In this document: positions 1,821 to 11,164 of the stretch, one piece after another
Position numbering within the stretch: position 1 is the stretch's first letter
How the letters are laid out: each line of letters starts with the position of its first letter
Assembly (NCBI GenBank): GCA_001791715.1
Contig: MGFD01000030.1
Location: 9,246 to 41,609 of the forward strand
Reading direction: 5' to 3'
DNA from: Candidatus Uhrbacteria bacterium RIFOXYB2_FULL_45_11
GTDB lineage: Bacteria > Patescibacteriota > Patescibacteriia > UBA9934 > GWF2-40-263
DNA length: 32,364 nt
The notes under the pieces: model-generated
The model's database searches: none
What the model saw: only the letters and a program-made list of their open reading frames with translations
Told to the model about the DNA's origin: nothing
Program-made: the position numbers and the translations under genes

Positions 1821-1884
1821 TAGCAATAAATCTGAGTTTGCACGAGGGTTTTTTGAATGGTGGTAATCAGGCTAACATGGGAAA

Positions 1885-1912
1885 TAAAAAATACCTCTTA
1901 GAACAGAGGTAT
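1885..1912 (-). terminator. rho-independent terminator after the M15 peptidase gene
   Basis: Minus strand: ATACCTCT-GTTCTA-AGAGGTAT followed by T6, directly after the TGA stop. Confidence 0.7.
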
Positions 1913-2442
1913 CAGGAATGCACTTCGTTTTTTTGAAAGTGCTGGTAGTCTTTGCGATCTGTCCACCGTCCGCCCCATTCCCATCCGAATTGTTCGAATG
2001 TTCGGACTACGATATCTCCATCAAGAATTGTTCCGGGTTGCAGAGGATTGTATGTAGACGTTTCTGGATGAACGGAACCGTCAATCGCAATGTATGGATT
2101 TTGCATCGGGTTTATATCAATTGCACGACCAAAGGAATGAATCGATAACCGATTGGTTAGGTGTATGGGCCGGTAATTGAACGCTGACGAATTGTTGTCG
2201 TCTGTGGATCGTTCGTCCGACCAATTGTATTTGGAGATCGGAATCATTTTTTCGATCGGAAATTTCGCTTCAAAGATGATACGGAAAATTTCCCGCACTT
2301 CATTCGCAAGGTCATTGCATACCACGAGTTGTCCGACATGTTCTTGTTCATCAAATCCCCAGTAGGGAATGGACAGTAACACCATTTGTAAACGTATGTT
2401 GTCCGGAGCAAGAGTTCCGTTCAACGCTTCGATGAGTGTCAT
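1912..2442 (-). CDS. M15-family zinc metallopeptidase (VanY / L-Ala-D-Glu peptidase-like cell-wall hydrolase)
   Basis: The ATG at 2442 is preceded by AAGGAG 7 nt upstream. Motifs: SIHSFGRAIDIN and FGWEWGGRW..KDYQHF. The 67-codon N-terminal extension in the ORF track reads through repeat R1 and was rejected. Confidence 0.8.
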   Translation of the reverse strand: MTLIEALNGTLAPDNIRLQMVLLSIPYWGFDEQEHVGQLVVCNDLANEVREIFRIIFEAKFPIEKMIPISKYNWSDERSTDDNNSSAFNYRPIHLTNRLSIHSFGRAIDINPMQNPYIAIDGSVHPETSTYNPLQPGTILDGDIVVRTFEQFGWEWGGRWTDRKDYQHFQKNEVHS

Positions 2443-2567: not shown

Positions 2568-2665
2568 GGAGAGTGTGAGATCGGAGGTCTCGCCCAACAT
2601 CCCGCTTCGCGATCTGTCCAAACCTTCGGTTTGGCTCCGCCAATAAAAAACACCTAATGTAAATA
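2568..2665 (+). repeat. R1: copy 1 of a structured tRNA-like repeat
   Basis: GGAGAGTGTGAGATCGGAGGTCTCGCCCAACATCCCGCTTCGCGATCTGTCCAAACCTTCGGTTTGGCTCCGCCA plus about 20 nt of trailer. Nearly identical to 3616-3710. It contains three hairpins, including CCAAACC-TTCG-GGTTTGG. Confidence 0.85.
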
Positions 2666-2701: not shown

Positions 2702-3535
2702 ATGAGTGAATACAATCCAGAGCGTGCACAACAAGAACGCATTGAGGCTGAACGCATGGAGTATAAAATAATCTCTCGGCGTGTTTTGAACGATCTTTTC
2801 AAAGACGTGCTTGATGCCCGTGAACTTGAAAGAAGATTGATGCTTGTTGATCGGGTAAAATTCGTTACACATGATCAGATGGATGTCATTGCAAAAAGCA
2901 ACCCGCAAGATGCGGGTGCTGACGGATTGATCCAGTATGAGGTAAGTGAATCTGAGGTTCGTCGGCTACCAATTGTTCTTCATTCTTCGTCGCGTGTAGA
3001 AACATTGCATACATTGGTGCATGAGGGCACTCATCTCATGACTCCTGAGTCTGTACTTGTTACGAACATAATAGCAGAACCGGATGAAGAAACTTTTTCA
3101 GATTATGTTGGAGGATTTCGGTTTGAACGTAACAGAAAAACAAAACAAATTGATCTGATGTCGATCCATAAAGATACACCAGCTCGTTTTCTCTTTTGGG
3201 AATCGGTTACGGATTGGATTGCGGAACTTGGACTTGAGAGTGAGATGAGTGATCAGGAGAAAGAAGAACTTGCAATGAGTGGTTACTTTGAGCGCCATTG
3301 GATCGATTACTTGATGCGTAAGTCGCCCGATGCACCTGGATTGATGCAAGCAATTAAAGAATCTTATGCAGCAGGGAGCGAAGATTCTTTACGTTGGTGC
3401 CTTCAAAAACAGTTAGATGTCCAGGATGATCATTTTTATGATGCACTTATAAAGATCATCGGACGCGATCGAACAGATGAAAAGCGGGTCGATGATTGGA
3501 TGCAAGTCGTTGATGACGCGTTTAAGTCGTCCTAA
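2702..3535 (+). CDS. hypothetical protein with an HExxH motif (putative zinc metalloprotease-like)
   Basis: 277-aa ORF containing LHTLVHEGTHLMTPE. No family recognised by eye. Confidence 0.6.
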   Translation: MSEYNPERAQQERIEAERMEYKIISRRVLNDLFKDVLDARELERRLMLVDRVKFVTHDQMDVIAKSNPQDAGADGLIQYEVSESEVRRLPIVLHSSSRVETLHTLVHEGTHLMTPESVLVTNIIAEPDEETFSDYVGGFRFERNRKTKQIDLMSIHKDTPARFLFWESVTDWIAELGLESEMSDQEKEELAMSGYFERHWIDYLMRKSPDAPGLMQAIKESYAAGSEDSLRWCLQKQLDVQDDHFYDALIKIIGRDRTDEKRVDDWMQVVDDAFKSS

Positions 3536-3583
3536 GCCTTGTTATTGGTTACGTCCTTTCAGCTTGGTTTCGCCATAAAAAAC

Positions 3584-3610
3584 ACCCAACGTAAAGCTGG
3601 GTATTTTTTT
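3584..3610 (+). terminator. rho-independent terminator
   Basis: ACCCAAC-GTAAA-GCTGGGT (one mismatch) followed by a T-run. Confidence 0.55.
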
Positions 3611-3615
3611 ATGTC

Positions 3616-3687
3616 GGAGAGTGTGAGATCGGAGGTCTCGCCCAACATCCCGCTTCGCGGTCTGTCCAAACCTTCGGTTTGGCGCCA
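3616..3687 (+). repeat. R2: copy 2 of the structured tRNA-like repeat
   Basis: Identical to R1 except for one A/G change and a 3-nt CTC indel. It ends in GCCA, and similarity to the R1 trailer continues to about 3710. Confidence 0.85.
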
Positions 3688-3729
3688 TACAAAAACACCG
3701 AACGCAAATGTTCGGTGTTTCTGTATGGC
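3684..3729. terminator. 20-bp-stem palindromic hairpin shared by convergent R2 and tRNA-Ser(UGA)
   Basis: Arms at 3684-3703 and 3710-3729 pair at 19 of 20 positions; the loop is GCAAAT. U-runs follow on both strands. The stem includes the GCCA 3' end of the tRNA. Confidence 0.7.
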
Positions 3730-3814
3730 GGAGAGGGCGAGATTCGAACTCGCGGAAGCTATTAACTTCGACAGTTTTCAAGACTGTTGCCATCAACCAC
3801 TCGGCCACCTCTCC
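3726..3814 (-). tRNA. tRNA-Ser (anticodon UGA), long variable arm, CCA encoded
   Basis: Reverse complement: GGAGAGGTGGCCGAGTGGTTGATGGCAACAGTCTTGAAAACTGTCGAAGTTAATAGCTTCCGCGAGTTCGAATCTCGCCCTCTCCGCCA. Anticodon loop CTTGAAA. Confidence 0.9.
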
Positions 3815-4058
3815 GTAAATTTTCAATGAGTCGCTTGTTTCTGAATGCCTGTCCTGAACCTGATTTGAGATATGTCTCAAATTGTCTTGCTTGAATCCTT
3901 GAGGGGAATGCGCAGTACCAAATAAGCATAACGGGCCTAAGGTTCTTTGTTGATTCTGCTTTCCCAATCTGGTGTTCTTCGAGTCTTCTTTTTAAATCTG
4001 GAGTACAACCTGTGTAGATTGAACTGTTCGATAATTTGAGAAGATAAACGTAGTACAT
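3762..4058 (-). CDS. small GIY-YIG nuclease-domain protein (YhbQ/UPF0213-like)
   Basis: MYYVYLLKLSNSSIYTGCTPDLKRRLEEHQ... from ATG 4058 (the ORF track starts at TTG 4067). The last 17 codons and the stop lie inside tRNA-Ser(UGA). Confidence 0.8.
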   Translation of the reverse strand: MYYVYLLKLSNSSIYTGCTPDLKRRLEEHQIGKAESTKNLRPVMLIWYCAFPSRIQARQFETYLKSGSGQAFRNKRLIENLRRGGRVVDGNSLENCRS

Positions 4059-4134
4059 ATTGGCCAAAGGCCACCCGAAACTTCAACAGATCATCAACTC
4101 TCTTCGCGTCACCCTTCGCCAAGGCTTCGGGTGA

Positions 4135-4179
4135 CACCCTACACTTCAACAATGGTAAACACTGTTGAAGTGTAGGGTG
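4135..4179 (-). terminator. perfect 17-bp hairpin directly after tRNA-Ser(GCU), overlapping its terminal CA
   Basis: caccctacacttcaaca (4135-4151) pairs with tgttgaagtgtagggtg (4163-4179), 17 of 17 positions, with an 11-nt loop. A second hairpin, gtcaccc/gggtgac, lies at 4108-4135. Confidence 0.6.
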
Positions 4180-4272
4180 GCGGAGAGAGAGGGATTTGAA
4201 CCCTCGCGCCGGTTTTAAAGCCGACCTAGGAGATTAGCAATCTCCCCCCTTCAGCCTCTTGGGTATCTCTCC
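4178..4272 (-). tRNA. tRNA-Ser (anticodon GCU), long variable arm, CCA encoded
   Basis: Reverse complement: GGAGAGATACCCAAGAGGCTGAAGGGGGGAGATTGCTAATCTCCTAGGTCGGCTTTAAAACCGGCGCGAGGGTTCAAATCCCTCTCTCTCCGCCA. Confidence 0.9.
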
Positions 4273-10764: not shown

Positions 10765-10772
10765 TAACAATT

Positions 10773-11102
10773 ATGGCTTGGGTATATATATTAAAAAGCG
10801 ATCTTGATGGTCGTTTTTATGTTGGAAGTACGACGGATATTGAGCGTAGAATTATTCAGCATGAACGAAATCAAACACCATCAACATATCGAATGCAGGC
10901 GCATAAACTGGTTTTCTCTCAAGAATATTCAACGCTTCGTGAAGCTCGAGAAATTGAGAGGCGACTTAAAAAACTGAAACGAAAAGATTATTTACAAAAG
11001 ATTATAAATGAGGGTTTGATTCGAATGCGACCTGGCGAGAGCCCCGACGCGCCGAATGATAAACTGTCGGCGGTCGGGGTCCCGACAATCGACAGTATTT
11101 AA
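10773..11102 (+). CDS. small GIY-YIG nuclease-domain protein
   Basis: MAWVYILKSDLDGRFYVGSTTDIERRIIQHE... The ATG lies only 8 nt after the tRNA-Arg CCA. The stop codon sits in the loop of a hairpin (arms at 11081-11094 and 11105-11119). Confidence 0.8.
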   Translation: MAWVYILKSDLDGRFYVGSTTDIERRIIQHERNQTPSTYRMQAHKLVFSQEYSTLREAREIERRLKKLKRKDYLQKIINEGLIRMRPGESPDAPNDKLSAVGVPTIDSI

Positions 11103-11120
11103 CGTGTCGATTCGTCGGGA

Positions 11121-11157
11121 CTGAGGGTCGTAGGTTCAAATCCTGCTGGGCGCACCA
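11121..11157 (+). repeat. duplicated 3' half of tRNA-Arg (direct repeat of 10728-10764)
   Basis: ctgagggtcgtaggttcaaatcctgcYgggcgcacca. 36 of 37 positions are identical to the 3' part of the intact tRNA. Confidence 0.9.
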
Positions 11158-11164
11158 CAAAAAA

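Follow-up and report, generated by a model that had tools for sequence, protein, structure and literature searches.

Phages, integrative and conjugative elements, genomic islands and the gene-less derivatives of such integrative elements target the 3′ part of tRNA genes. The locus described here lies at positions 3616-3729 of a 32,364-nucleotide (nt) stretch of DNA (the window) from the ultra-small Candidatus Uhrbacteria bacterium RIFOXYB2_FULL_45_11 (candidate phyla radiation, Patescibacteria; contig MGFD01000030.1, positions 9,246 to 41,609 of the forward strand), where a gene-less, strongly folded insert of approximately 115 nt, called R in the following, is found behind the gene for tRNA-Ser(UGA). 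Like the tRNA-targeting elements, R is inserted at a tRNA 3′ end, supplies a replacement end that keeps the tRNA intact, is surrounded by the bounding direct repeat of the tRNA 3′ end that is a feature of these elements, and occupies a hotspot at which foreign genes have gathered. In contrast to them, R is only about 115 nt long, is mostly free of cargo, has a terminator of its own and lacks the integrase that a tRNA-targeting element requires, the recombinases of relatives being located at distant loci. A further difference is that the complement of the repeat lies inside R, where it is split by hairpins, and that the same body is found matched to different tRNAs.

Several other systems have to be compared with R. 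The Ssn proteins are single-domain GIY-YIG proteins that are flanked by hairpin repeats (NTS/SRM) and act as site-specific single-stranded DNA (ssDNA) nucleases, and their NTS-ssnA-NTS layout has been likened to insertion sequences, while tRNA genes are not mentioned in that study (PMC11893778). R shares with this system the occurrence of hairpin repeats in genomes with single-domain GIY-YIG genes, and all three such genes of the present genome are situated at tRNAs, beside hairpins and duplicated tRNA pieces. R differs from Ssn in that it has no nuclease gene and in that its hairpin sequences are not those found beside the GIY-YIG genes. Fungal mitochondrial DNA contains double-hairpin elements (DHEs), gene-less two-hairpin units for which mobility and a role in mediating gene transfer have been proposed (Paquin, Laforest and Lang 2000, as cited in PMC5910586). 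DHEs resemble R in being short, gene-less hairpin units of compact genomes, but they are multi-copy, dispersed and organellar rather than bacterial. We know of no DHE that carries copies of the end of an adjacent gene.

In the ssDNA transposition of IS200/IS605 elements, a short guide next to a subterminal hairpin pairs with the target; these guides are 4 nt in length and a Y1 transposase is needed. Folded ssDNA hairpins combined with internal target-complementary bases are common to these elements and R, whereas the 4-nt guides contrast with the 8 + 8 nt in R and an 18-nt target duplication is not seen in IS200/IS605. Single-strand transposition of IS200/IS605 is also mentioned in the discussion of the Ssn study (PMC11893778). 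R is furthermore reminiscent of a tRNA: it shares the GGAGAG start of tRNA-Ser, ends in GCCA and allows a four-way junction to be drawn in which an acceptor-like closing stem is stacked on a hairpin. Unlike tRNA (RF00005) and minihelix substrates, it has a closing stem of only 4 bp and is not detected by ARAGORN or Infernal. The attC site of integrons is an imperfect palindromic structured element with R''/L''-L'/R' core sites, on which the integrase IntI acts. R is likewise an imperfect structured palindrome, and its copies form an array next to a fixed site in which acquired genes are bracketed one by one, but no IntI was found (no tyrosine (Y) recombinase was found in the window's own genome, G000, an assembly of about 0.88 Mb that is 77% complete), no R''/R' core sites were identified, although no search was aimed at them, the two bracketed genes are oppositely oriented, and R copies the neighbouring tRNA. 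Among the nearest published systems, the tRNA-targeting elements, Ssn with its repeats, the DHEs and IS200/IS605 each have at least one defining feature that R lacks, and a literature search found no published description of such tRNA-end-copying modules.

The gene for tRNA-Ser(UGA) is intact and located on the minus strand at 3726-3814 (ARAGORN; Rfam RF00005, 59.9 bits). Its final 18 nt, ATCTCGCCCTCTCCGCCA (3726-3743, minus strand), form repeat copy A. The R copy next to it, R2, was delimited by sequence, repeat search and comparison with relatives and comprises 72 nt of the plus strand (3616-3687, GGAGAG...GCGCCA). Its start overlaps A' (3612-3629, minus strand; ATCTCACACTCTCCGACA), a direct repeat of the last 18 nt of the tRNA that is identical at 15/18 positions here. 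R2 contains three hairpins. In hairpin 1 (3621-3643), A', representing the 3′ strand of the T-stem and the first acceptor bases, is paired to its own complement, with arms GTGTGAGA and TCTCGCCC at 3621-3628 and 3636-3643 and a 7-nt loop (TCGGAGG), whose CCTC core recurs in the tRNA-Val module described below. Hairpin 2 (3645-3665, core 3650-3660) has the form ACA..CCGC-TTC-GCGG..TGT, and hairpin 3 (3666-3682) reads CCAAACC-TTC-GGTTTGG with the 15-nt core CAAACCTTCGGTTTG. R2 then runs into a terminator-centred palindrome (3683-3730), identified by inverted-repeat search and fold z-score, with arms at 3683-3703 and 3710-3730. The outer arms of this palindrome are the GCCA end of the tRNA and the GCCA end of R (3684-3687). 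There is no open reading frame (ORF) inside R.

An initial annotation, made from the sequence alone, had described R2 as a tRNA-like repeat with a GGAGAG start, a GCCA end and three hairpins, and all of these are present in the sequence. The hairpins are real, but the loop of hairpin 3 has 3 nt instead of being a 4-nt TTCG, and the GAGA/TCTC pairing given for hairpin 1 is only its core. The proposed mirror symmetry between R2 and the minus-strand tRNA-Ser(UGA) through a shared palindrome holds, the arms being 21 nt each and 95% complementary. The suspected tRNA-derived character was likewise correct, in the sense that R carries copies of the 3′ end of tRNA-Ser(UGA). Since an 18-nt direct repeat of the tRNA end delimits R, the hairpin that had been called D-arm-like is A' paired with its complement. 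Similarly, the GGAG/CUCC 'acceptor' is the complement of the end of A paired with the end of the split sense copy, and the 8-nt terminal inverted repeat of R, TGGCGGAG/CTCCGCCA, is tRNA-derived.

Read on the tRNA strand, R2 consists of the complement of the tRNA end (TGGCG), hairpin 3, hairpin 2, the complement of the junction between T-stem and acceptor, the loop and A'. The order of the whole locus is therefore as follows: A is followed by the palindromic terminator, TGGCGGAG (the complement of the last 8 nt of A), hairpins 3 and then 2, GGGCGAGA (the complement of the first part of A), the 7-nt loop, A' and a second terminator. Taken by itself, R has an unexceptional fold energy (z = -1.0 on the plus strand and -0.1 on the minus strand), while together with the palindrome (3616-3730) z = -6.8 is reached. 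The G·U wobbles of the terminator palindrome favour folding of the transcript of the tRNA (minus) strand.

The direct repeat is better preserved in part of the relatives. R is present in four further genomes of the same genus (G002, G004, G006 and G007), and A' is identical to A at 18/18 positions in G002, G004 and G006, as compared to 15/18 in the window and G007. In the former three genomes R starts with TGGCGGAGAGGGCGAGAT, which corresponds exactly to the final 18 nt of tRNA-Ser(UGA) in reverse complement, and in G004 the identity between A and A' extends through the terminator arm to 33 identical nt. None of 500 shuffled 18-mers reached the match level of A and A'. What distinguishes R from a chance structure is this match and the comparison between genomes.

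Six R copies from these five genomes, with the window supplying both R2 and a second copy, R1, were aligned and used to build a covariance model, which was searched against 73 genomes of the family. In addition to the tRNA-Ser copies, the model recovered a diverged copy behind tRNA-Val(UAC) in G004 with 37 bits. In this module the segment complementary to the last 8 nt of the tRNA is found at +38, the one complementary to the first 10 at +81 and the direct copy, identical at 17/18 positions, at +96. The layout is collinear with that of the Ser modules of G004, G006 and G007 (+38-40, +83-86 and +98-101); over the Ser modules in general, the direct copy is at +97-101. The terminators of the Val module and the window's Ser module agree at 26/37 positions, comparable to the Ser orthologues of the window and G007 (26/38), and the shared body further includes hairpin 3 (14/15) and the loop (5/7). 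In the target-complementary block, which follows the sequence of the local tRNA, agreement is limited to 2/7 positions. G004 also carries a tRNA-Asn module of this design, in which the first hairpin is longer. An inverted, hairpin-split copy together with a direct copy of the tRNA's own 3′ end is thus seen at tRNA-Ser in five genomes and at tRNA-Val and tRNA-Asn in G004, and homology between the modules at different tRNAs is evident. As judged from sequence comparison, the module body (terminator, hairpin 3 and loop) is common to the loci, and the four tRNA-derived segments correspond at each locus to the adjacent tRNA. These sister copies, fitted to other tRNAs, suggest that a so far undescribed type of small insertion element is involved. 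A census of the hairpin 3 15-mer, CAAACCTTCGGTTTG, in 162 genomes of the order gave 16 matches, 13 of them in the genus, with none for the reversed sequence used as control. All except one of the genus copies are located beside tRNA genes (Ser, Val, Asn, Gln and Ile).

At several of these other tRNA genes, related structures were observed. A conserved structure of about 130 nt lies upstream of tRNA-Gln (G000:C66:3413-3560; L048 in G004; L049 and L054 in G006); it is closed by GGAATGGCC/GGCCATTCC, contains three hairpins, the last of which is the CAAACCTTCGGTTTG hairpin of R, and has no match in Rfam. Directly upstream of tRNA-Ile(GAU), an 80-nt element (G000:C22:1889-1968; L043) opens with the first 11 nt of the tRNA and holds the same 15-nt hairpin. 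Downstream of tRNA-Gln (G000:C66:3200-3338), past the terminator, the complement of the tRNA end is split into TGGTTCC, two hairpins and CGGACAGGGAT, and the region continues with two tandem long hairpins (..GAACGGAGAAAGC..) that are related to the first hairpin of the tRNA-Asn modules. In G007 (L047; G007:C1:72.9-73.2 kb), a tRNA-Asn-type module with terminator is succeeded by no more than about 10 nt of the end of tRNA-Asn, and two integrase-family genes and a small GIY-YIG gene are found 3.5-6.5 kb away (G007:C1:76.5-79.7 kb). The surrounding region looks like an island integrated in tRNA-Asn.

R at tRNA-Ser(UGA) occurs in 5/8 genomes of the genus, the window included, and strong matches to the covariance model are restricted to these five. 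The relatives carry R convergent with tRNA-Ser(UGA) at the same position, with identities of 96% (G002), 91% (G004), 89% (G006) and 78% (G007), and R diverges at about the rate of the surrounding sequence. To the left of R, a RibD_C-type gene is found in G002 and G006 and a different gene, read as pirin-like, in G007. Two other members of the genus, G003 and G005, have no R and carry their two tRNA-Ser genes in the opposite order; in G013 and G084, from two other genera, only an ordinary terminator separates tRNA-Ser(UGA) from the next gene, again without R. R is therefore an insertion limited to part of one genus. The exact direct-repeat pattern of the tRNA-Ser end had no match in 401 sampled genomes of the class, a sample that did not include the R-bearing relatives, so that this negative result shows only that the Ser module is not widespread. 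In public collections the R pattern was found in the same genus only, in 4 genome records, three titled Candidatus Uhrbacteria and one labelled uncultured Gammaproteobacteria, and in 1 metagenome contig, of which the stretch examined matches G002.

The consensus fold of the six copies is a four-way junction with GGAG/CUCC closing and a GCCA tail. Hairpin 2 is variable in sequence, and G007 rebuilds its stem with 3 compensatory pairs (AAACTTGC-TTC-GCAAGTTT), whereas stem-breaking changes are seen in hairpin 3 of G002 and hairpin 1 of the window. The covariation that the initial annotation had suggested looking for is thus present as structure-preserving double substitutions in one hairpin, but it is confined to a single genome.

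Assignment of R to a described RNA class was tried with ARAGORN and with Infernal against Rfam 15, at gathering scores and at E<=1. Neither program called a tRNA on either strand of R, and no Rfam family covers R; the matches in the window are its three tRNAs only. The sole sub-threshold overlap is sX4, with 34 bits as compared to the 70 needed, and this match spans the tRNA. A tRNA, a tmRNA or a known RNA family is ruled out by these searches at both thresholds. The initial annotation had judged by eye that no canonical cloverleaf can form, which agrees with the closing stem of 4 bp and the negative ARAGORN result, and had left open an assignment by Rfam, which none of the families provided. 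With regard to tRNA features, the middle hairpin has a 3-nt loop, and a 7-nt anticodon loop, a T-loop and a D-loop are not present. The genome-wide copy count proposed at the same time yielded R1, which is 97% identical to R2, and hence two full copies in total. The alternative that R is a short interspersed nuclear element (SINE)-like repeat did not survive: each genome holds 1-2 copies, the tRNA beside them is always the same, and the ends copy the neighbouring tRNA and not a master element. The same holds for dispersed repeats of the SINE, miniature inverted-repeat transposable element (MITE) or repetitive extragenic palindromic (REP) type in general, given 2 copies in this genome and single copies in relatives, always at tRNA-Ser(UGA).

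We consider it probable, with considerable room for doubt, that R is a non-autonomous, DNA-level insertion module with target-matched ends, which was later amplified in tandem and flanked by acquired genes. Such a module would lodge at the tRNA 3′ end, and the tRNA would stay intact because one 3′-end copy completes the gene while the second is displaced downstream, ahead of the older terminator, a logic that is the same as that of elements integrating into tRNA genes. The module may act as folded single-stranded or cruciform DNA that is moved or copied in trans, for which a small Ssn-like GIY-YIG nuclease sited at tRNA genes would be a candidate enzyme. Gene conversion or palindrome correction could keep the complementary segments matched to the tRNA, and the direct repeats would permit unequal crossing-over to a tandem array (R'', R1, R' and R2) that now brackets two acquired genes. 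The anatomy, its distribution, the homology of modules at different tRNAs and the amplification are shown by the sequences; how the module acts on DNA, which enzyme mobilises it and in what order the events took place is what we infer. A more specific version, which we regard as possible but doubtful, is that of a target-matched mobile DNA with a conserved body (terminator, 15-nt recognition hairpin and CCTC loop) and two guide-like segments that jointly form the exact complement of the last 16-18 nt of the local tRNA. The target would be found or copied by base pairing in folded ssDNA and the module would be moved by a trans-acting small nuclease or, in a variant, would be transcribed into acceptor-stem mimics for each tRNA.

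Several points weigh against a mobile DNA module. R contains no nuclease or recombinase, and filled and empty alleles of the site were not found together in any one species. As the modules recognised number only some 3-5 per genome, mobility rests on homology between few loci. The hairpins of R are unlike the CCCCGAC-type double hairpins beside GIY-YIG genes, so that the link between R and the nuclease is only a circumstantial co-occurrence. Furthermore, the G·U wobbles lean toward the plus strand (6 independent events vs 2, which is not significant) and the plus-strand GCCA is kept in 6/6 copies; both would fit a plus-strand RNA.

The potential mobilising enzymes were surveyed in the R-bearing genomes. 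G000 encodes three small GIY-YIG proteins, and all three genes adjoin tRNAs: Arg(GCG), the two tRNA-Ser genes, between which one of them is located, and Trp. The gene between the two tRNA-Ser genes (3762-4067, minus strand; Pfam PF01541, 54 bits) lies outside R, beyond the tRNA, and the hairpins at this gene are not those of R. Cassettes of a GIY-YIG gene plus double hairpin are lodged at tRNAs at 10765-11163 and 3762-4177 of the window, and the tRNA-Arg(GCG) cassette comprises a double hairpin and a duplicated 3′ half. R itself is not a GIY-YIG gene flanked by its own hairpin repeats, as an Ssn cassette would be, and G004 carries R although its two tRNA-Ser genes are 18 nt apart without a nuclease gene between them. 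An IS110-type or bridge-RNA element was rejected, with no PF01548 match in five genomes. A link to Y1/HUH transposases (IS200 or RAYT) was rejected as well, as PF01797 is found in G000, G002 and G004 and not in the R-bearing G006 and G007. The Y1 (IS200/RAYT-type) domain frames, of about 285 amino acids, are located at G000:C19:9574-9897 and G002:C5:291695-292018.

The R array extends to the left of R2 and has the order RibD_C gene, R'' fragment, M15 gene, R1 with decayed terminator, ORF277, R' with terminator, R2 with terminator, tRNA. R'' (1858-1882, plus strand; TGGTGGTAATCAGGCTAACATGGGA) is a decayed 5′ fragment of R, recognised by alignment with the junctions between RibD_C and R in G002 and G006, where R begins at this point in both. 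It is followed by a Peptidase_M15_4 (endolysin-like) gene (1912-2442, minus strand), which is absent here in G002 and G006. The full copy R1 (2568-2642, plus strand; 2568-2638 as found) has an undeleted CTCCGCCA end, after which comes a decayed terminator copy (2643-2690). The acquired hypothetical ORF277 (277 amino acids; 2702-3535, plus strand) separates R1 from R' (3553-3611, plus strand), which consists of the decayed 3′ part of a third copy (3553-3575, GTCCTTTCAGCTTGGTTTCGCCA) and a terminator copy (3576-3611). The motif GCCATAAAAAACACC.. occurs three times. Neither the M15 gene nor ORF277 is found at this position in the closest relatives, and both are bracketed by R copies or fragments. 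ORF277 has no Pfam, PHROG or NCBIfam match; homologues occur in 4/72 family genomes, none of them in the genus, and among the named matches only Uhrbacteria-type sequences are found. These homologues lie in ordinary contexts without a tRNA, for which reason ORF277 was rejected as part of a travelling cassette. The same arrangement is present in independently assembled contigs of this strain (PRJNA292723). The array is the product expected from unequal crossing-over at direct repeats and subsequent gene insertions, although the order of these events can only be proposed. In another assembly of the same strain (L092:2230-2490, compared with window positions 4068-4180), an extra tandem copy of about 129 nt is present in the hairpin region between tRNA-Ser(GCU) and the start of the GIY-YIG gene, and the loop of hairpin 3 of R2 shows a C-to-T change; the hairpin regions therefore vary within the population.

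A different explanation, which appears unlikely to us, is that R encodes a small plus-strand RNA resembling a tRNA, either an acceptor/T-type minihelix or a four-way junction, with the ...CUCC-G-CCA end of tRNA-Ser. Transcribed toward the shared bidirectional terminator, it would serve as a mimic or decoy of the tRNA acceptor end that is offered to processing enzymes, to the CCA-adding enzyme, to SerRS or to toxins that target the acceptor. The consensus four-way junction with its GGAG/CUCC closing and GCCA tail is what such an RNA would show, as are the 3 compensatory pairs of hairpin 2, yet the compensatory changes all stem from one genome, the closing stem is not conserved and some copies have stem-breaking changes. 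The free NCCA tail is removed by a 3-nt deletion in R2 and G002, although modules at other tRNAs terminate in the NCCA of the respective tRNA. The 6:2 excess of plus-strand wobbles, which includes both G004 closing-stem changes, likewise favours an RNA, but it is not significant and the terminator wobbles favour the tRNA strand instead. While the plus-strand GCCA is retained in all six copies and the CCA of the minus-strand copy A' is lost in 3/6, conservation of GCCA is expected anyway because it forms the arm of a palindrome with the real tRNA end. Finally, neither R1 nor R2 is preceded by a promoter-like site, and the gene that lies upstream of R in G002 and G006 is divergently oriented.

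Two further explanations dispense with both a small RNA and a protein-less module. R could have originated in place, either by replication template switching at the terminator hairpin and T-arm, with growth of the palindrome, or as a decayed tandem duplicate of tRNA-Ser plus terminator, which we hold to be rather improbable. The terminator behind A' does resemble that behind A, several other tRNAs of this genome have terminator palindromes that reach 5-7 nt into the tRNA end, and R, without a variable arm, has approximately the length of tRNA-Ser, the antisense of which weakly matches the R model (16.8 bits). Local switching leaves unexplained, however, why the same 15-nt hairpin, a closely similar terminator and a similar loop recur behind tRNA-Val and tRNA-Asn with their order and spacing unchanged; the 13 genus copies of the 15-mer against none for the control, and the failure to recognise R as tRNA or pseudo-tRNA on either strand, also speak against it. 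The narrower proposal of a decayed tandem tRNA-Ser pseudogene, to which the reverse complement of R aligns loosely by eye, was rejected, as its 'D-arm' hairpin is the 15-mer of the Val, Asn, Gln and Ile loci. R might also be the attL/attR scar of a tyrosine-integrase island that formerly resided in tRNA-Ser and left the M15 gene and ORF277 behind. The direct repeat of the tRNA 3′ end, the adjoining acquired genes, one of them endolysin-like, and the position of the G007 tRNA-Asn-type module 3.5 kb from integrase genes would suit such a scar. This origin is nevertheless very improbable: R occurs without any cargo in G002, G004, G006 and G007, the tyrosine recombinase domain PF00589 has no match in G000 (in its 77% complete assembly) and in G004 and G006 is represented only by an Xer-like gene elsewhere, and hairpin-split inverted target copies are not a feature of integrase att sites.

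If the favoured insertion module is real, with a body that moves and complementary segments that are rewritten for each target, R would represent an insertion element reduced to the minimum and free of protein, and its target recognition could be deduced from the sequence. It would bear on gene acquisition next to tRNAs in the very small genomes of the candidate phyla radiation, in view of the two foreign genes inside the R array, and on the search for programmable ssDNA tools, for which the Ssn nucleases are an example. Should the modules instead be transcribed, every one of them would mimic the acceptor end of its particular tRNA, an RNA class not described in bacteria. Even the most sober reading would still explain recurrent pseudo-tRNA signals and assembly breaks around the tRNA genes of Patescibacteria.

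Beyond R, the genome G000 is full of tRNA-lodged hairpin inserts. Upstream of both tRNA-Thr genes (G000:C11:2060-2140 and G000:C66:6064-6165), the first 25 nt or so of the gene are present as a further copy, split in the D-loop by a double hairpin (CCCCGA..TCGGGG + AGCYGAC..GTCGGCT) of the type found in the tRNA-Arg(GCG) GIY-YIG cassette, here without a nuclease gene. At G000:C14:1890-2260, an intact tRNA-Arg(UCU) is situated at the tip of a 25-bp hairpin within an older tRNA-Arg copy, which is split in the D-loop and has a further insert of about 80 nt in the T-loop. Downstream of tRNA-Trp (G000:C11, 5287-5499), a GC-rich palindrome, partly N-masked, is followed by TGGCAGG (the complement of the tRNA's own end), a terminator and a small GIY-YIG gene.

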